DNA of 64,000 nt, taken from the NCBI GenBank assembly GCA_943356485.1, contig CALRFD010000003.1, positions 7,702-71,701 of the forward strand, written 5' to 3'. The stretch is from Patescibacteria group bacterium. Its GTDB lineage: Bacteria > Patescibacteriota > Microgenomatia > Daviesbacterales > UBA10151. The translations under genes were made by a program, and so were the position numbers. Below, piece after piece: positions 7,786-64,000 of this stretch (within the stretch, counting starts at the first letter, position 1; every line of letters starts with the position of its first letter). The notes below the pieces were generated by a model that worked only from the letters and a program-made list of their open reading frames with translations, did no database searches and was not told the DNA's origin.

Positions 7786-7824
7786 CAACCCCAGGGGTTG
7801 ATTACCTTCAAACCCCGGGATTTT
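7786..7824. repeat. REP-like palindromes, family 1 (CAACCCCAGGGGTTG plus adjacent AAACCCCGGGATTT)
   Basis: Imperfect palindromes read directly. A third related copy sits at 17906-17924. Confidence 0.6.
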
Positions 7825-7862: not shown

Positions 7863-8534
7863 ATGCCCTACAGAAAAACTGCCATTGTTTCTGGCGAGGT
7901 ATATCATATTTTTAATAGAGGAATAGCCGGGGCACCAATATTTTCAACTACTAAAGATTTCTTGCGCTTCCTAGACTTAATAAATTATTACCGTTTTAGA
8001 GATACCCCGGTAAGTTTTTCCCAATTTAAAAAGATAAAGAAAGAGGATAGAGAAAAAATTTTAAGCAATTTAGTGAAAGAAAATAACCCGCAAATAGAAA
8101 TATTAGCATTTTGTTTAATGGATAATCACTTTCATTTTCTTTTAAAACAAATTCTAGATAAGGGGATAGCCAAATTTGTCAGCAATTTACAAAATGGCTA
8201 TGCTAAATATTTTAATGTAAAAACTGAAAGGTATGGACCATTATTTCAGCCCATGTTTAAATCTGTAAGAGTTGTAAAAAACGAGCAACTTCTTCATGTT
8301 TCAAGATACATACATTTAAATCCATCTACAGGTTATTTAGTAGAAATAAAAGATTTAGAAGAATACCCTTGGACATCGCTATCCAGTTATCTTAAAGAAA
8401 ACTTAGAATATCCTTTTGTAAGTACGGAATTTATCCTGGAATTTATGAGTAGAAAGAAGTATAAAGAATTTATATATGATCAGGCAGAGTATCAAAGGGA
8501 GTTGGCAAATATTAGACATCTGACCTTTGAATAA
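7863..8534 (+). CDS. RayT-like HUH tyrosine transposase (IS200/IS605 TnpA superfamily, REP-associated), paralog 1
   Basis: HUH motif MDNHFHFLL, conserved N-terminus YHIFNRG, C-terminal VSRYIHLNPSTGY catalytic-Tyr region. 223 aa. About 45% identical by eye to the 41193-41858 paralog. Confidence 0.8.
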   Translation: MPYRKTAIVSGEVYHIFNRGIAGAPIFSTTKDFLRFLDLINYYRFRDTPVSFSQFKKIKKEDREKILSNLVKENNPQIEILAFCLMDNHFHFLLKQILDKGIAKFVSNLQNGYAKYFNVKTERYGPLFQPMFKSVRVVKNEQLLHVSRYIHLNPSTGYLVEIKDLEEYPWTSLSSYLKENLEYPFVSTEFILEFMSRKKYKEFIYDQAEYQRELANIRHLTFE

Positions 8535-8550
8535 AAAAGATTCATTTCCT

Positions 8551-8584
8551 TGGGTTGGAAGCTATTTAACCCCTGGGGTTAATG
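8551..8584. repeat. REP family 1 copy, inverted relative to the 7787 copy (AAGCTATTTAACCCCTGGGGTTAATG)
   Basis: It is the reverse complement of the core of the upstream copy. It shares the 22-bp block AAGCTATTYAACCCCTGGGGTT with 17903-17924. Confidence 0.6.
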
Positions 8585-9033: not shown

Positions 9034-10634
9034 GCCTTTGTGCCCGGAGTTTGAAAGTCTAGGTGTAATAGATGGGTACCTGACTCTGATAGGCTTACTA
9101 GCGGGTAAAGTTTAGCTTCAGAAGCTGTAATAGTTTGGGTAGGTTTTCCATCAATAGAGACTTTAATTAGATCCTGAGACGTTTTGGGAGTAATGACTAA
9201 GAAAACTTTAGCGGCATTAAATTTAAAATCCAGAGTTGAGTTTTGTTTTGAAGAGATGAATTCATTTTGGATATCCCAGTCTCCTCTTATTGTCCAGCTA
9301 TCCTGCCCCAAATCCTTAGAGCTGGAATATCTTTCTCTTCTACTTAAACCCAAGTATGTTTCCGGGGTAATTTTAGTTTTGGGTGTTTGGTCGGCAATGT
9401 TAGTGAGCGTTGCATCAATGTTTTTGCCGGCTTCAGCGAGTAAGGACTGAATAGCTTTTTCGCTTTGGTCATATTCGCCCTCCCCAAAATGTACATGCCT
9501 GATTACCCCTTTGGCATCTATTAAATACTCGGCCGGCCAATACTGATTGTTGTATGCTTTCCAGATAGCGTATTCATTATCTTGTACAATTGGGTAATGA
9601 ATATTATATTGTTTGATTGCACTTAAAACATTTTCTGTCTTTTTTTCAAACTCAAACTCCGGAGTATGGACTCCGATTACCACAAATCCCTTATCCTTAT
9701 ACTTCTCGTACCAGGAAGTAACAAAGGGGAGGGTTCTTATGCAATTAATGCAGGTATATGTCCAAAAATCAACCAAAACTACTTTTCCCTTAAGATCGGC
9801 TAATGTTTGTATCTGTCTATCGGCAGGCAGGTTTAGCCATTTAGTTCCCCCGCTAAAATCCGGTGTGTCTCCCGTATTCCTTCTTCCGCTTAAGCTATCC
9901 AGCTGTTTTGTCACTTCCGGCTGCAACTCTATTTGGGTTAGATAGTTAGAAAATGATGGAAAAGAGTTTAAAAGTTTAGCCTGCAGTAGTTTATCCCAGT
10001 TAAAAAATATGGAGACTGCTGTTGCAAGCAGGATCAGGCCAAATATTTGCTGAATTACTCCTGTATACCTTGAAATAACCTTAACTTTTTGAAATACCCT
10101 ATTGCCTAATGTGGCAAAGATAAAAAGTGGAATGCCAATTCCTAAAACATAAAAAAGCGTTACTAAAATAATTTTGAAGTTAACTGCTTTTGTGGCAGCA
10201 AGGGTGGCAATAGTTGCGAGGATCGGTCCGGCACAGGGTGACCAAATAATCCCTAAGAAGAAACCGGTAATAATTCCGGAAGTAAAACCAGAGGAATTAT
10301 TTACTTGCAAACCGGCTCTGGCACTTAAGCGGCTGACCCAACCCTCTAGGATTAAAGCCAATTGCGGAATTATTAAAGTTAAGCCCAAAACCATAGGCAT
10401 GATTACGGCAAAAAGCCTTAATGAATTTGGATCAAAAGGAATAATCTTTATGATATAGGATAAAGAAAGTGTAAAAAAAGCAAAGCTTAACATAATGCCA
10501 ATAGTTATTCCCAAAGGTTTTCGCTTACCTCCGGTAGCAGTTGAAGAGAGGATAATTGGTAAAAGCGGCCAAACACAAGGTGCGGCAATGGTGACTAGTC
10601 CGGAAATAAAAGCGAAAACAAGGAGTATTGACAT
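9009..10634 (-). CDS. CcdA/DsbD-type thiol-disulfide transporter fused to a C-terminal thioredoxin-like (TlpA/ResA-type) domain
   Basis: Multi-TM N-terminal half with Cys motifs (AAPCVWPLLP, SPCAGPIL). C-terminal WTYTCINC CxxC redoxin motif. Confidence 0.75.
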   Translation of the reverse strand: MSILLVFAFISGLVTIAAPCVWPLLPIILSSTATGGKRKPLGITIGIMLSFAFFTLSLSYIIKIIPFDPNSLRLFAVIMPMVLGLTLIIPQLALILEGWVSRLSARAGLQVNNSSGFTSGIITGFFLGIIWSPCAGPILATIATLAATKAVNFKIILVTLFYVLGIGIPLFIFATLGNRVFQKVKVISRYTGVIQQIFGLILLATAVSIFFNWDKLLQAKLLNSFPSFSNYLTQIELQPEVTKQLDSLSGRRNTGDTPDFSGGTKWLNLPADRQIQTLADLKGKVVLVDFWTYTCINCIRTLPFVTSWYEKYKDKGFVVIGVHTPEFEFEKKTENVLSAIKQYNIHYPIVQDNEYAIWKAYNNQYWPAEYLIDAKGVIRHVHFGEGEYDQSEKAIQSLLAEAGKNIDATLTNIADQTPKTKITPETYLGLSRRERYSSSKDLGQDSWTIRGDWDIQNEFISSKQNSTLDFKFNAAKVFLVITPKTSQDLIKVSIDGKPTQTITASEAKLYPLVSLSESGTHLLHLDFQTPGTKAYAFTFGD

Positions 10635-10779
10635 ACTTTAAGAATATCACATAATATGTAAGTGTTCTTTCAGGGTTTTGCGTAAGTCAAAATCGGTGGT
10701 AAACTCCACGACCAGCCTTTGGCTGGATGAGCCGGTGTAACTCCGGCAGCGACCGTATAGTCGGGATGAAAGGAAGAAT

Positions 10780-11700
10780 ATGAAAAAACTAATATCCTTT
10801 GGTCCGCTATTTGTTGCCTTAGCAGCTATAATTTGGAGTTTTGATGGTTTGCTAAGACGCAGTTTATACTCACTCCCACCTTCAGTAGTGGTTTTTTATG
10901 AGCATCTGATTGGTTTTGCCATTCTTTTATTATTTTTCCCAAAATGGTGGCCTGATTTAAAAAAACTGACTAAAAAAGAGTGGTTAGCCATCTCTTTAGT
11001 CGCGCTTTTTTCAGGAGCTTTGGGGACAATTTTTTATACTGCGGCTTTAGGAAGAGTAAATTATATTCAGTTTTCCGTTGTTGTTTTACTGCAACAGCTT
11101 CAGCCTATTTGGGCCATATCTGCCGCGGCCATCATACTTAAAGAACGAGTTAATAAGAGATTTATCCTTTGGGCAGGAATAGCTTTAGTTGCCGCATATT
11201 TTATAAACTTTAAAGACCTGAACGTAAATTTTCAAACAGGTACAGGGACAGCGGTAGCAGGAGGATTAGCTCTTCTGGCAGGAGTTTTATGGGGCTCCTC
11301 AACAGCGATTAGTAAGTATGTTTTAAACAAGGTTTCTTTTTTGACTGCCACAGCTTTGCGGTTTGCCCTGGCTCCTTTTTTTGCCCTGGGATTTATTTTC
11401 TCAATGGGGCAATCTGCCGCTATTTTTCAAATTACGCAAGCGCAAATATGGACACTTTTATTAATAGCTTTTTCAACCGGGATGGTAGCCTTAGCTATAT
11501 ATTATTATGGTTTAAAAAAGACTCCGGCCAGGATTACGACCCTTTGTGAGTTGGTTTGGCCAGCCTCCGCAGTCTTTATAGATTATGTCTATTTTCACCA
11601 AAGCTATTCAATAACCCAGATTTTAGGAATAGTAGTTTTGCTTTTTGTGCTTTATCAAGTAGCCTGGAAGAAAACAGAACTCATTGACAAAAGGGACTAA
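10780..11700 (+). CDS. EamA/DMT-family transporter (about 10 TM)
   Basis: Two repeated roughly 5-TM halves. Composition typical of EamA. Confidence 0.65.
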   Translation: MKKLISFGPLFVALAAIIWSFDGLLRRSLYSLPPSVVVFYEHLIGFAILLLFFPKWWPDLKKLTKKEWLAISLVALFSGALGTIFYTAALGRVNYIQFSVVVLLQQLQPIWAISAAAIILKERVNKRFILWAGIALVAAYFINFKDLNVNFQTGTGTAVAGGLALLAGVLWGSSTAISKYVLNKVSFLTATALRFALAPFFALGFIFSMGQSAAIFQITQAQIWTLLLIAFSTGMVALAIYYYGLKKTPARITTLCELVWPASAVFIDYVYFHQSYSITQILGIVVLLFVLYQVAWKKTELIDKRD

Positions 11701-17616: not shown

Positions 17617-17634
17617 GGGCCGGTAGCTCAGTGG
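17617..17634 (+). pseudogene. Duplicated 5' segment of tRNA-Lys (GGGCCGGTAGCTCAGTGG) with a similar leader; no 3' half follows
   Basis: 18 nt identical to 17793-17810. The preceding roughly 16 nt (GAACGTAAGTGAGAA) resemble the leader of the intact gene (GAACGAAGTGACGAAAT). Confidence 0.5.
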
Positions 17635-17658
17635 GTCATGAACCATATGGTTCATGAC
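17635..17658. repeat. Perfect 24-bp palindrome GTCATGAACCATATGGTTCATGAC
   Basis: Read directly. It immediately follows the tRNA fragment. Confidence 0.9.
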
Positions 17659-17792
17659 GGGATAACTACAAATTAATCCGCGTTCAGCGGATATCTTGAA
17701 ATAATAGTTATCACAGGAAGAGCAGTGCCGAAGGCTTTTTGTAGTGAGTACATTGAAAACTTTGTTTACATTGAGGAACGAAGTGACGAAAT

Positions 17793-17864
17793 GGGCCGGT
17801 AGCTCAGTGGTAGAGCAATGGACTCTTAATCCATTTGTCGTGGGTTCGACCCCCACCCGGCTCA
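17793..17864 (+). tRNA. tRNA-Lys (anticodon CTT)
   Basis: Cloverleaf: acceptor GGGCCGG/CCGGCTC, D-arm GCTC-AGTGGTA-GAGC, anticodon stem ATGGA/TCCAT with loop CTCTTAA, T-arm GTGGG-TTCGACC-CCCAC. CCA is not encoded. Confidence 0.85.
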
Positions 17865-17886
17865 CAAGACCTATAGTTTAGCCTCA

Positions 17887-24348: not shown

Positions 24349-24400
24349 GTCTAATCTCCCCAGGTGACCTATATTCTACACCCCCCAGGTGAGCTTATTT
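24349..24400 (+). repeat. REP-like family 2 copy (TCTAATCTCCCCAGGTGACCTATATTCTACACCCCCCAGGTGAGCTTA)
   Basis: Matches 31362-31412 over 48 bp with 3 mismatches. The core is shared with 41864-41898 and, inverted, with 41138-41170. Confidence 0.7.
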
Positions 24401-31361: not shown

Positions 31362-31412
31362 GGGATCTAATCTCCCTAGGTGTCCTAAATTCTACACCCC
31401 CCAGGTGAGCTT
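31362..31412 (+). repeat. REP-like family 2 copy
   Basis: GGGATCTAATCTCCCTAGGTGTCCTAAATTCTACACCCCCCAGGTGAGCTTA. Confidence 0.7.
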
Positions 31413-41137: not shown

Positions 41138-41170
41138 CACCTGGGGGGTGTATTAGCTTGACACCTAGGG
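41138..41170. repeat. REP-like family 2 copy, inverted orientation
   Basis: Reverse complement CCCTAGGTGTCAAGCTAATACACCCCCCAGGTG. Confidence 0.65.
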
Positions 41171-41192: not shown

Positions 41193-41858
41193 ATGCCAGG
41201 GAGATTACTACCCTTAGTTACGAATGAAATATACCATATCTACAATAGGGGGATTAACCGGCAACCGACTTTTACAAATAAAAGAGAATGTGATAGGGCT
41301 ATTGAGACTATAAAATTTTATAGATTTGCTGATTTACCCTTAAGATTATCCAAATTTCTTTTACTTGAACAGAAGAAACAAAAGGAAACCGCTGAAAGTT
41401 TAGCTAAATCACTAGTAGAGATTCTTGCTTTTTGTTTGATGCCAAATCATTTTCATTTTTTGCTTCGGCAACAAGAAGACGGCGGTATTGCCACATTTAT
41501 AGGTAAGTTTCTAAATAGCTACACTCGATATTTTAATACTGTAAATAAGAGGGATGGTTCTCTATTCCTTGACCAGTTTAAAGCTGTTAGGGTGGAAACT
41601 GATGAACAACTGGTTCATGTTTCAAGGTATATCCATTTAAATCCATACACAGGTTATGTTATTAAGACTCTTGATGAGCTTCAATTATATCGATATTCTT
41701 CATTTAAGGATTACATTGATAATGATGAAACATTTGTTACAACAGACTTGATTCTAGGACTTTTTAAGGATAAAAATTTGTATAAGCAATTTGTTCTCGA
41801 TCAGGCAGATTATCAAAGAAGATTAAAGGACATTGAGCATCTTGCACTAGAGGCATGA
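41193..41858 (+). CDS. RayT-like HUH tyrosine transposase, paralog 2
   Basis: YHIYNRG, HUH motif MPNHFHFLL, VSRYIHLNPYTGY. 221 aa. Confidence 0.8.
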   Translation: MPGRLLPLVTNEIYHIYNRGINRQPTFTNKRECDRAIETIKFYRFADLPLRLSKFLLLEQKKQKETAESLAKSLVEILAFCLMPNHFHFLLRQQEDGGIATFIGKFLNSYTRYFNTVNKRDGSLFLDQFKAVRVETDEQLVHVSRYIHLNPYTGYVIKTLDELQLYRYSSFKDYIDNDETFVTTDLILGLFKDKNLYKQFVLDQADYQRRLKDIEHLALEA

Positions 41859-41863
41859 TTTTC

Positions 41864-41898
41864 CCCTAGGTGACCTATATTCTACACCCCCCAGGTGT
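41864..41898 (+). repeat. REP-like family 2 copy
   Basis: CCCTAGGTGACCTATATTCTACACCCCCCAGGTG. Confidence 0.65.
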
Positions 41899-57766: not shown

Positions 57767-58339
57767 ATGATAATCTTCATTGATGAATCCGGTACGCATA
57801 AACAAATGGATCATGCAACTATAGCCCTAGTTTATATAGAAATAGCTAATTTAGAGGAATTTGAGGAGGCAGTAGAGCAAATTGAAGAGAAACTTAATAT
57901 TAAATACTTTCATTGGACAGATGAAAAATGGGATAAAAGGGAAAAATTTATTGAACAAATTTTGAAGCTGGATTTTTTTGTTAAAGTGGCCATACTAAAT
58001 AATCCAGTTAAACTTGCTGAAAGCCTAGAAGACGCATTAAGACATCTTGTAGTTGAAGAGAATATAAAGAAAATTATGCTTGATGGTAGAAAACCAAGAT
58101 GGTATAACCAAAGGCTGAAAAAAGTATTAAGAGATAAGGGTGTATCCGTTAAAAAGATTGTAACTGTCAGAAAAGATGAATCTAGTCCTGGGATAAGAGT
58201 ATCTGATTGTTTAGCGGGGTTAATTAGAAATAATTATGATAACCCTGATTCACTAGCCTCTAAGTGGTATGACAAGATGAAAAAAGCAGAGAAGATTAGA
58301 CTTGAGATTACTACTTACCCACAAAAAAGCCCCGCTTAA
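57767..58339 (+). CDS. DUF3800-like protein (IFIDESG N-terminal motif)
   Basis: N-terminal MIIFIDESGTH resembles the DUF3800 signature. The assignment is tentative. Confidence 0.35.
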   Translation: MIIFIDESGTHKQMDHATIALVYIEIANLEEFEEAVEQIEEKLNIKYFHWTDEKWDKREKFIEQILKLDFFVKVAILNNPVKLAESLEDALRHLVVEENIKKIMLDGRKPRWYNQRLKKVLRDKGVSVKKIVTVRKDESSPGIRVSDCLAGLIRNNYDNPDSLASKWYDKMKKAEKIRLEITTYPQKSPA

Positions 58340-58397
58340 AGCGAGGCCAGTTATTCAAGTAGTTTATTGCTAAACTCGGCGGCTCACCGTCCTTTGT

Positions 58398-58535
58398 CCC
58401 CGATAACTTGTTGTAAATGTATTATACCACAACTTGTATCAAAAACTCATCTCTAAATCAGAATACGTAATTTTGCGTGGGTGGGTGGGCAGATTATAAT
58501 CCTGAGCAGGGCCGAAGGACTTAGTTTGTACCCAG
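58398..58535 (+). repeat. Dispersed repeat, copy R5 (full length, about 138 bp)
   Basis: Combines the 5' arm shared with R3 and the core shared with R2 and R4. Confidence 0.8.
58473..58500 (+). promoter_or_regulatory. Sigma70-like promoter inside repeat R5: TTGCGT, 16-nt spacer, TATAAT
   Basis: Read directly. It faces rightward into the 3' end of the minus-strand gene 58545-59075, so it could make an antisense or small RNA. Confidence 0.3.
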
Positions 58536-61965: not shown

Positions 61966-62562
61966 ACAATCAATTTTTATTGTATATTTCCAATCATGAG
62001 TTTAGAGTCAAAAAATGAGCCTGCAATACTTAGTTATTTTAAGAGGAGCAAGGAAGGACGCTCTTTCGGATCGGATTTAGATGTAGTGCAGGAATTTGTT
62101 GACCGTTACCAAATTACCAGAAGAGACGGTAGGACTGAAGGATTAAAAAAATTGCTGGCAGAACTTGGAGAATGTGCTAGCAATTTTGAAGCTGATCGAG
62201 TATTAGGTGGATGGTCGCAAGCTGTCTACATAGGTGATGAATTGATTGTAAATGCGACAATAGCAGCGGCGGCAGGTGTTTTTAGAAAGAGACGTTTATC
62301 TCCGGAAGATGATGAAGTTAAGGGCTATATTGCAGCTAAAGCAACTGCAATGCTGCTTAGTGCGGATGGTCCCAGACCAGGTGGAGCTGTTACGTATGGA
62401 AGAGAAGCTTATAACAAATTAATCCGCCCGGTAGTTAGAGAAGGCAGAACCCTAGGAGTACATGGAATGACTGTTTTTGCTATTGCCGAAAGTACAGATT
62501 ACGTAAGTACACATCCGCTTAACGCATGTAGAGGAATAGTGGGATTTAGAAACCTTCTTTAA
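61960..62562 (+). CDS. Hypothetical protein (200 aa)
   Basis: ORF only. Confidence 0.3.
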   Translation: MHTINFYCIFPIMSLESKNEPAILSYFKRSKEGRSFGSDLDVVQEFVDRYQITRRDGRTEGLKKLLAELGECASNFEADRVLGGWSQAVYIGDELIVNATIAAAAGVFRKRRLSPEDDEVKGYIAAKATAMLLSADGPRPGGAVTYGREAYNKLIRPVVREGRTLGVHGMTVFAIAESTDYVSTHPLNACRGIVGFRNLL

Positions 62563-62604
62563 CTCTTGCTTTTTGGGTTTCCTTCGGATAATAATATACA
62601 TACC

Positions 62605-62644
62605 TTTGTCATCTAGAGATTGCCACGCTTCGCTCGCAATGACA
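62605..62644. repeat. Truncated copy of the MITE-like palindromic element found inside dinB
   Basis: TTTGTCAT-CTAGAGATTGCCACGCTTCGCTCGCAATGACA aligns to both ends of 63226-63306, with about 40 bp of internal sequence missing. Confidence 0.6.
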
Positions 62645-62651
62645 ACTCACT

Positions 62652-62894
62652 ATGTTAGAAATTTCCGAACCGATTGATGTCTGGGTGTTTTTTAAAAAAA
62701 GCTCAGTGCAACCCTATATTTTTTTCTGGCGGGAGAGGAAAATTAAAATAGAAAAAATTAACCTGGTTCATACTTCAAAAGAAGGATCAAGCGTTTTTTA
62801 TCATTTTTCTATATCCAGTGGAGGGAATTTTTACAGATTAGGATTTGATACTTTTAAAATGAAATGGTTTTTGGAAGCGGTGGAAGAAGAGTGA
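62652..62894 (+). CDS. Hypothetical protein (80 aa), stop overlapping the dinB GTG start
   Basis: GTGA overlap at 62892-62895. Confidence 0.35.
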   Translation: MLEISEPIDVWVFFKKSSVQPYIFFWRERKIKIEKINLVHTSKEGSSVFYHFSISSGGNFYRLGFDTFKMKWFLEAVEEE

Positions 62895-64000
62895 GAGCAA
62901 TATTACATATAGACTTTAATTCATACTTTGCCAGTGTTGAACAGCAGGCTAATCCTCGTTTACGGGGTAAACCGATTGGAGTAACAGGCGGTGACAGAAT
63001 AAAAAGAACTGTTATCGGTGCAGCTTCAATTGAGGCTAAAAGGTTTGGAGTTAAAACAGGGATGGCGATTTGGCAGGCAAAAAAACTTTGTCCGCAAATA
63101 ATACTTGTGAAAGGTGATAGCGATAAATATTTAGAGACCACCAAAAAGTTTTTATCAATTGTAAAAAGCTTTAGCCCGATTGTTGAGGTATTTTCGATTG
63201 ATGAAGTTTTTTTACAACTTCCTTTTGTCATTCCGAGGGAGCGAAGCGACCGTAGGAATCCTGATTCTAATCTAGATTGCCACGCTCCTTCGGAGCTCGC
63301 AATGACGTTAAAAATTGCTCAGGAGATCAAATCCCGTGTCCGTTCTGAACTTGGTGAATATATTAAATGTTCTATTGGTATTTCCTACAATAAATTAATG
63401 GCAAAGCTGGCCGGATCTTTGCAAAAGCCGGACGGGTTAGTGGTTATTGCAGATCAGGAGGAAGCTATAAAAGTACTGGATAAAATAGAGCTGGATGAGA
63501 TCTGTGGGATAGGTCGTGCGATCAAGAAAAGGTTAAATAATATGGGGGTGTTTAATTTTAAAGATTTGCGGAAAACTCCTCTGGAGGCACTGCTGGCTTC
63601 TTTTAAATCTTACGGCAAAACTCTTTATGATATGGCAAGAGGAATAGACGAACGACCGATTTTACCTTTTTTTGAAAAACCAGAGGTAAAATCAATTGGC
63701 CACAGACATACGATTGACTACGATACTTCTGATCCAACTGAAATAAAACAAATTTTACTTAAATTAACAGAGTTAATTGCCAGAAAGTTAAGAGCTAAAA
63801 AATTAGTTGGCAAAACAATTTCTTGCTGGTTTCGTCGAGTTCGAGGTGCGACCTCAACGAAGGTCGCACCTGAACAGATGGGAATGCAGGTTACGATTTT
63901 CCCGACCCAAGATGGGTTGGAAATTTTTAAATCTGCATGGAAAGTTTTCAATTATTTATGGGATGGAGAAAGAATAAGGATGGTTGGCGTTTCTATTTCT
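62893..64000 (+). CDS. dinB: DNA polymerase IV (Y-family), 3'-truncated by the window edge; absent from the ORF track because no stop lies in the window
   Basis: My translation from the GTG at 62893 gives VRAILHIDFNSYFASVEQQANPRLRGKPIGVTGG ... SIDEVFLQL ... IAQEIKSRVRSELG ... KLMAKLAGSLQKPDGLVVI, which are canonical DinB palm and finger motifs. The frame is open to position 64000. Confidence 0.85.
63227..63306. mobile_element. About 80-bp MITE-like palindromic element inserted in-frame within dinB
   Basis: Terminal inverted repeats GTCATTCCGAGGGAGCG ... CGCTCCTTCGGAGCTCGCAATGAC. The encoded segment PFVIPRERSDRRNPDSNLDCHAPSELAMT sits where DinB normally has a short loop between the DEVFLQL and IAQEI motifs. 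Confidence 0.5.

Follow-up and report, generated by a model that had tools for sequence, protein, structure and literature searches.

The window analysed here, a 64,000-nt stretch of a Candidatus Daviesbacteria genome (candidate phyla radiation (CPR), Microgenomates), ends inside dinB, the gene for the Y-family DNA polymerase IV (Pol IV). Within dinB lies an 80-nt segment that is most probably a non-coding inverted doublet of two hairpin units, similar to REPINs (doublets of repetitive extragenic palindromic (REP) sequences) and to transposable elements of the miniature inverted-repeat type (MITEs), which belongs to a family associated with GIY-YIG nuclease genes and is read through in a recurrently hit loop of the polymerase. 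For comparison we aligned 120 DinB orthologues and examined, at the DNA level, 45 Daviesbacteria-type dinB loci, one of them that of the window; of the host genome itself, 73 kb were readable. The dinB operon of the window carries the following features:

62608..62643, minus strand: solo GTCAT-hairpin unit of 36 nt in the leader of the small-ORF/dinB operon
62652..62894, plus strand: open reading frame (ORF) of 80 amino acids, a distant DUF6504 relative conserved as the upstream partner in this DinB clade
62891..64000, plus strand: dinB, Y-family DNA polymerase IV, 5′ 1,110 nt; continues past the window end
63227..63306, no strand assigned: two GTCAT-hairpin units forming an inverted doublet in frame, similar to REPINs and MITEs and encoding ...VIPRERSDRRNPDSNLDCHAPSELAMT
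63227..63260, plus strand: left unit, GTCATTCCGAGGGAGCGAAGCGACCGTAGGAATC
63261..63273, no strand assigned: inter-unit spacer CTGATTCTAATCT, 13 nt
63274..63306, minus strand: right unit, GTCATTGCGAGCTCCGAAGGAGCGTGGCAATCT in the minus-strand reading, a close relative of the solo unit
63844..63871, no strand assigned: second in-frame dinB palindrome, AGGTGCGACCT n6 AGGTCGCACCT, located in the hairpin turn of the little finger (site 2)

An inverted doublet inside an intact polymerase gene

On the plus strand the 80-mer reads GTCATTCCGAGGGAGCGAAGCGACCGTAGGAATC-CTGATTCTAATCT-AGATTGCCACGCTCCTTCGGAGCTCGCAATGAC, with GTCATTCCGAGGGAGCG...CGCTCCTTCGGAGCTCGCAATGAC as its ends. Its termini are GTCAT...ATGAC inverted repeats, extended to TTGTCAT/ATGACAA in other copies of the family, and an inner 12-nt pairing holds with one mismatch. 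The segment folds better than its shuffles (z = −3.1 as RNA, about −2.5 as DNA), the right unit also folds alone (z = −2.3), and the 17-mer terminus occurs a single time in the window, with 0.03 occurrences expected. A CCTTT(T) run to the left of GTCAT is seen again in other copies. As 80 nt is not a multiple of three, the true boundaries or flanking adjustments must deviate slightly from the GTCAT...ATGAC core. Rfam returned no family at gathering score in 62400-64000, where an E-value scan gave chance-level matches only.

The first-pass annotation had described an ~80-bp element with inverted termini that adds about 20 residues to DinB without breaking its frame, and this description held throughout. 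The reading frame is uninterrupted and matches Pfam IMS (1.3e-39), IMS_C and IMS_HHH_1, with 168 residues covering 146 positions of the IMS profile; matches to Pol IV structures in the PDB reach 4e-38, and among named proteins those annotated as Daviesbacteria DNA polymerase IV come closest. The full protein, P0001 (443 amino acids, start ATG 62864), is 100% identical to the window polymerase, and the closest orthologue, P0002, has a similar insert. Residues D17, D113 and E114 are invariant across 118 orthologues. Alignment to Escherichia coli Pol IV (4ir1) leaves 19 extra residues exactly at the insert, alignment to 7yll leaves 28 residues unaligned there, and the shortest orthologues have 28 codons fewer between the IDE motif and the next helix (36 nt versus 120 nt). 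The peptide across this insert reads ...FLQLPFVIPRER..., and that across the second palindrome ...APSELAMTLK....

Structure prediction put the insert into a loop, as the first pass had suggested, and placed that loop in the palm, directly after the catalytic DE strand. In the AlphaFold model, whose overall fold matches Y-family polymerases, the insert forms a coil (residues 120-143) between strand 114-119 and helix 144-163, and the strand preceding this coil bears the catalytic D113/E114. Confidence is low, the mean predicted local distance difference test score being 57-60 per 10-residue block over residues 121-140. The ~19-28 extra residues, the number depending on the reference, are predicted to form a flexible surface coil. 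The second palindrome falls in a turn (326-337) between little-finger strands. From the known architecture of Dpo4 and Pol IV, we infer that both loops point away from the DNA, and a polymerase carrying the insert is expected to stay functional.

A related copy does lie upstream of the operon, as claimed in the first pass, but at 62608-62643 rather than 62605-62644, and the name 'deletion derivative' suits it less well than 'solo unit', an identical sequence being found 5′ of a GIY-YIG gene elsewhere. On the minus strand it consists of GTCATTGCGAGCGAAGCGTGGCAATC + TCTAG + ATGAC, that is, one unit plus the opposite GTCAT terminus. Two exact blocks of it, AGATTGCCACGCT and GCTCGCAATGAC, recur in the dinB copy's right half; its 25-nt unit, GTCATTGCGAGCGAAGCGTGGCAAT on the minus strand, is identical to the one that precedes the GIY-YIG gene of locus L085. 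Like the doublet it is small and non-coding, neither having an ORF of its own, and by our translation it is open in five of the six reading frames. The 36-mer alone does not fold better than its shuffles (z = −0.8), and a promoter and terminator scan of the leader found nothing above shuffles, so a regulatory role for the solo unit is not supported.

The dinB operon of Daviesbacteria as a hotspot

Site 1 is defined here as the palm loop between FSIDExFLE and the IAxEIK helix, and site 2 as the little-finger turn between CWYR and DFxGxGMQ. Together with the leader and the spacer that separates the small ORF from dinB, they are the four recurrent landing places in the Daviesbacteria dinB operon, over which at least five unrelated palindrome families are distributed. 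The site-1 stretch varies from 36 to 192 nt across the 45 loci, and its longer versions are mostly strong hairpins from unrelated families: GTCAT doublets, the GAGTCTAG family, the AT-rich 'KYET' family, the GC-rich GGGGTCCTGCC family, the CCTGTAAC family and CACC..GGTG palindromes. The orthologues thus share no conserved loop of equal length, and the reading of the loop as an insertion stands. The first pass had allowed for a loop specific to a lineage or strain; a strain oddity it is not, the site being filled recurrently and hence a hotspot. Site 2, which the first pass had missed, carries in the window an 11-bp perfect stem (z = −6.2), the strongest GC-rich hairpin of the entire 64,000 nt.

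Nearly every insert at sites 1 and 2 forms a strong hairpin, and hairpins there far exceed the background, for which we used length-matched windows in other ORFs of the same loci. Perfect stems of at least 8 bp occur in 18 of 45 site-1 regions and 16 of 33 site-2 regions, compared with 5-6% of background windows (binomial p ~1e-12); stems of at least 11 bp occur at site 2 in 12 of 33 regions versus 0.03% of the background. Some two thirds of the examined Daviesbacteria-type loci have a hairpin-forming insert at the palm site, and by hand count the density of GTCAT units within the operon exceeds that of its flanks ~20-30-fold. Outside this group, dinB of other CPR lineages and of Geobacter relatives has the canonical loop of fixed length, with no hairpin excess (0.21 per kb inside versus 0.33 per kb outside); one Uhrbacteria dinB contains a solo unit in frame. 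Two accounts were rejected: hairpins are not a general property of DinB, other lineages being without enrichment, and the loops did not evolve them in situ, the same sequences flanking GIY-YIG genes and genes for REP-associated tyrosine transposases (RAYTs) elsewhere.

Could the pattern arise from random insertion, with copies inside genes surviving only in a dispensable dinB that has two tolerant loops? All surviving inserts are in frame and lie in a coil or a β-turn, and the Daviesbacteria palm loop has lost an FLDVT...FGSA segment kept in other DinBs, suggesting relaxed constraint. Such a passive filter by itself nevertheless fits poorly with the neighbouring genes. In 17 other syntenic gene families we counted 96 tolerated inserts or indels of at least 7 amino acids, of which only 2 had a stem of at least 8 bp, versus 17 of 34 in dinB. 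Moreover, occupancy of the palm site is estimated at ~60%, against ~14% for the average intergenic region, terminators and tRNAs counted, and the operon's non-coding parts are enriched too. We consider filtering by itself unlikely.

The inserts also appear to come and go. Mapped on the DinB tree, insert families require 57 Fitch changes, compared with 61 when shuffled, and are thus nearly uncorrelated with descent; given the weak resolution of the tree, these counts indicate fast turnover and give no rate. Shared inserts are confined to very close relatives; the gain, loss and replacement of inserts appear to outpace the divergence of species. This turnover bears on the idea that a strong hairpin in the dinB operon is useful in itself, whichever palindrome is recruited for it, by throttling a mutagenic polymerase via the structure of its mRNA, as an RNase III site or by pausing replication or transcription. 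In its favour, our tally gives ~90% of operons with one or more strong hairpins among the four sites, and the enrichment is specific to this operon. Against it, neither position nor sequence of the hairpin is conserved, some species have none at all (L022, L032 and L039), dinB of other lineages does without, and the inspected stems are perfect Watson-Crick helices, as for repeats maintained at the DNA level and not as for selected RNA helices. We judge selection for structure to be improbable, somewhat more so than the passive filter.

Through all of this the frame is kept. The ORF is intact across all inserts in 44 of the 45 loci, every loop length being divisible by three and free of stop codons, a pattern that one would expect only with translated inserts and purifying selection on DinB. 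It leaves very little room for excision of the insert from the message or for its bypass by ribosomes, either of which would leave the protein unaltered. A compact hairpin within a coding sequence does recall bypass elements, but the divisibility by three and absence of stops apply to both sites, and in Rfam the region matches neither a ribozyme nor an intron; we regard excision or bypass as highly improbable. In the sole broken copy (L041, ~10150-10260) the disruption of the frame falls in the finger region, is unrelated to the palindromes and reflects either a pseudogene or an assembly error.

GTCAT units and small GIY-YIG genes

Beyond the window, the 80-mer belongs to a family whose units share one layout: GTCAT, a 5-bp stem, a loop that often includes GAGCGAAGCG, the return stem and ATC, in solo and doublet forms. 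The fetched loci contain at least seven stem variants (ATTGC/GCAAT, ATTCC/GGAAT, ATTCT/AGAAT, ATCCT/AGGAT, ATCCC/GGGAT, ATGCT/AGCAT and ATTAC/GTAAT), all Watson-Crick paired, which indicates that the family keeps the hairpin and not a particular sequence. Orthologous DinB proteins use all three frames of it (VIA.../VIP..., CHSG... and SLRG.../SFWG...).

Further copies of the element, which the first pass had only anticipated, turned up at non-homologous places and in other phyla, the family being present in CPR bacteria, Cyanobacteria and Bacillota. In the closest species representative (L048/L081), a copy of the same subfamily lies in an intergenic region 5′ of a flavoprotein gene and has the CCTGATTC junction seen in the window's spacer. 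On a Vescimonas fastidiosa replicon (Bacillota), a doublet sits between groEL and groES, its left unit identical to that of the window at 33 of 36 positions. Other units and doublets occur in CPR loci L009, L046, L074 and L077. Three broader searches added little: a metagenome scan for the junction GGAATCCTGATTC-N-AGATTGCCACG returned only the L048 species, a 54-amino-acid composite query from both strands found no candidate host protein, and phmmer with the 31-amino-acid insert against 1.84 billion representatives gave one match, a spurious ORF across a unit array.

The family is associated with small GIY-YIG genes. In locus L024, a 91-amino-acid GIY-YIG gene (Pfam PF01541, 9.6e-18) separates the small ORF from dinB; at its borders stand inverted GTCAT units, which share a perfect inverted repeat of 14 nt. 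Another Pfam GIY-YIG match is at 2e-17. All seven L024-type genes with readable DNA (L024, L082, L085, L086, L094, L095 and the Planktothrix plasmid L092) have units within ~100 nt on both sides, which form terminal inverted repeats in some contexts and, in others, doublets that alternate with a GIY-YIG gene or several. Homologues of the L024 protein number 701 at E < 1e-8, mostly on ~1-kb contigs, with Omnitrophota, Patescibacteria, Ignavibacteria, Nitrospinae and Deltaproteobacteria among the sources, and several of 13 longer ORF calls that we examined end in unit-derived peptides (SLRAKRS..PRND, LAMT, EEIASA). The 'MITE-like' label of the first pass fits the small size and inverted ends, and from these contexts it can be narrowed to a REPIN-like doublet in inverted arrangement, with units of the kind found on both sides of small GIY-YIG genes. 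In two cases genes and GTCAT doublets alternate in arrays: L095 has two tandem GIY-YIG genes (601-888 and 1051-1338) with doublets between them, and on the Planktothrix plasmid (L092, 118-867) repeated doublets lie on both sides of a GIY-YIG gene that sits between an MmeI-type restriction-modification gene and the DISARM gene drmA.

Most likely, the dinB insert would originate as an ORF-less derivative of a GIY-YIG-bearing element, moved in trans by the GIY-YIG nuclease. Insertion could proceed via a single-stranded hairpin or break repair, with landing in the palm loop directly after the D-E strand followed by in-frame read-through. Preference for dinB may reflect targeted or locally favoured insertion together with unusually permissive loops. 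Our working view is that locally favoured insertion and permissive loops account for it; targeting is plausible, yet the GIY-YIG and RAYT enzyme families would then both need the same points. Whether GTCAT units and ~95-amino-acid GIY-YIG genes together make up an undescribed, phylum-spanning class of mobile element, with GIY-YIG in the part that RAYTs play for REPs and with the dinB operon of Daviesbacteria as a preferred landing or homing site for these and further hairpin elements, is a more tentative proposal, which we think possible but would not yet favour. Literature searches, within the searchable library, found nothing that ties GIY-YIG to MITEs, REPs or inverted repeats, nor anything on the terminal sequences.

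Several points weigh against this account. No direct repeat that would indicate target-site duplication surrounds any inspected copy, the flanks tending instead to be inverted, and we found no empty-site allele close enough to fix the boundaries of the insert. The readable 73 kb hold few copies, namely one relic and three intact units that all lie in the dinB operon, and they lack a GIY-YIG gene. The link between nuclease and repeat is an association; mobilisation by the nuclease, the mechanism of insertion and the cause of the dinB preference are proposals. The ~95-amino-acid protein comprises the catalytic domain only, with no obvious DNA-binding module, and other GIY-YIG subfamilies (L017, L022, L029 and L048) are without intact GTCAT units. 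Translation of the insert, likewise, is what we infer from frame conservation, and the turnover estimate depends on a neighbour-joining tree that is poorly resolved at 65-70% identity.

A variant that complements the identity of the element, and does not compete with it, is homing with immunity: nucleases carried by the elements would cut conserved sequences of the dinB operon, and in-frame inserts, whatever their family, would be favoured at those points because they split the recognition site and render the allele immune. GIY-YIG homing endonucleases classically target DNA-metabolism genes. In three loci (L020, 5696-5959; L030, 253-516; L024, 5570-5842) a small GIY-YIG gene is inserted at the very same place, the spacer that separates the small ORF from dinB, and these represent two different genes, one in L020 and L030 and the other in L024. 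The palm site abuts the gene's most conserved nucleotides, ATnGAnGAnnnnTTnnTnGAA, and a relic near tRNA-Lys, with an 18-nt tRNA duplication, suggests site-specific insertion. Set against this, the four sites have no obvious common sequence, the nuclease has no DNA-binding domain, cleavage specificity is without direct evidence, and RAYT-type REPs, which depend on another enzyme, use the same sites. We think homing with immunity rather unlikely, if less so than the passive filter.

The relic itself occupies 17618-17792, upstream of tRNA-Lys(CTT) (17793-17865). It contains an exact 18-nt copy of the tRNA 5′ end (GGGCCGGTAGCTCAGTGG) and, after this, the perfect palindrome GTCATGAACCATATGGTTCATGAC; the next ~130 nt are rich in hairpins, and directly adjoining the tRNA is CATTGAGGAACGAAGTGACGAAATG, a degenerate unit of the GTCAT type. 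The whole looks like the remnant of an element inserted into the tRNA gene. GIY-YIG genes adjoin tRNA genes in L017, L022, L029 and L048, and those of L022 and L029 have similar contexts with duplicated tRNA fragments.

Relation to known repeats and neighbouring features

Among known systems, the closest in behaviour are Rickettsia palindromic elements (RPEs), short palindromic repeats that lie in frame in protein genes and add surface peptides while function is kept (PMC10969869). The likeness is one of behaviour. RPEs measure ~100-150 bp, are restricted to Rickettsia and scatter over many unrelated genes; in Daviesbacteria, by contrast, a single operon is hit repeatedly by several families, and candidate partner nuclease genes can be identified. 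In-frame palindromic repeats in genes were previously known mainly from Rickettsia.

In anatomy the GTCAT family resembles the REP/REPIN-RAYT system, with a 5′ motif and an imperfect palindrome, solo copies and inverted doublets (REPINs and bacterial interspersed mosaic elements), and a partner nuclease gene flanked by units. It differs in having a ~95-amino-acid GIY-YIG gene instead of an HUH/Y1 transposase and GTCAT instead of GTAG, and in being low in copy number, intragenic and translated, whereas REPs are extragenic by definition. Bacterial MITEs (Correia/NEMIS, ERIC and BOX) are likewise small and non-coding, have terminal inverted repeats and can fuse in frame with host ORFs. They derive from larger elements with matching ends; the dinB element, unlike them, shows no target-site duplication, and its putative autonomous parent has no recognised insertion-sequence transposase. 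Free-standing GIY-YIG homing genes (the T4 Seg family; I-TevI) have the GIY-YIG domain and sites beside DNA-metabolism genes in common with the ~95-amino-acid genes, which consist of the catalytic domain alone and are bracketed by hairpin repeats. Bypass inserts (T4 gene 60; 'byp' of Magnusiomyces mitochondria) are also short, GC-rich, hairpin-forming, mobile and within coding sequence, but are skipped and so free in frame, while the dinB inserts are strictly in frame and stop-free.

One conserved repair gene in a CPR lineage thus acts as a sink for several hairpin-repeat families, true REPs included, with its frame kept. How such elements choose targets, how much insertion the palm loop and the little-finger turn tolerate, and whether small stand-alone GIY-YIG nucleases mobilise hairpin repeats now become testable questions; annotations as small stand-alone 'GIY-YIG nuclease family protein' exist by the thousand. 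Peptides like VIARSEATKQS, LAMT and RND in predicted proteins can be recognised as repeat-derived. If the new element class proves real, a translesion polymerase would be continually remodelled by translated mobile palindromes.

The evidence for true REPs comes from site 2 and from RAYT-like genes, two of which lie in the window:

41193-41858, plus strand: RAYT-like Y1 transposase gene (Pfam Y1_Tnp, 5e-9)
7863-8534, plus strand: second RAYT-like gene, 45% identical to the first, with its own inverted palindromes

The 41193-41858 gene matches the NCBIfam REP-associated tyrosine transposase model at 3.2e-12, below the curated cut-off. Inverted REP-like repeats, CCYAGGTGWCCTAWATTCTACACCCCCCAGGTG, stand on both sides of it, at 41138-41150 and 41865-41897; the repeat beside the gene is CCTAGGTGACCTATATTCTACACCCCCCAGGTG, with further intergenic copies at 24359-24391 and 31375-31407. 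The 7863-8534 gene has AACCCCAGGGGTT upstream (~7789-7801) and AACCCCTGGGGTT downstream (~8568-8580). The palindromes of these genes, CACC-N5-GGTG and AACCCC-N-GGGGTT, are distinct from the GTCAT units. At site 2 of the L028 dinB an in-frame insert closely resembles the REP beside the 41193-41858 gene, and CCACACCCGGTGTGG, the REP flanking a RAYT in L004, recurs exactly as an arm of the hairpin at site 2 of L027. The translated inserts therefore include bona fide sequences of REP type, which normally are extragenic.

The 13-mer CACC-N5-GGTG is strongly over-represented in the Daviesbacteria loci and the window, with 46 occurrences where we estimate roughly one to be expected; window positions include 24379, 31395, 41138 and 41885, and the excess consists largely of REP copies and paired dinB arms. 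Its candidacy as an SOS-type operator was rejected: the genes next to it have no relation to repair, and it occurs on the flanks of a RAYT-like gene.

The 80-amino-acid ORF upstream of dinB is conserved as a partner of this DinB clade, in Daviesbacteria and far outside them. Its TGA stop overlaps the GTG at 62891, and P0001, counted from ATG 62864, overlaps it by 31 nt. In tblastn searches a large majority of Daviesbacteria-type loci have it ahead of dinB, as do 21 of 36 loci from other lineages, which include Uhrbacteria, Kerfeldbacteria, Saccharibacteria, Latescibacterota and Geobacter/Desulfuromonadales. It had no match among solved structures; 6 of 13 members matched DUF6504, with a best E value of 5.6e-5. 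Elsewhere in the window, Rfam identified a flavin mononucleotide (FMN) riboswitch (10662-10781, plus strand; 89.5 bits) upstream of the ORF at 10780-11700, and a DUF3800-II RNA (58345-58414, minus strand; 54 bits, above gathering score) adjoining the plus-strand gene at 57767-58339, which is labelled DUF3800 in the L090 gene table.

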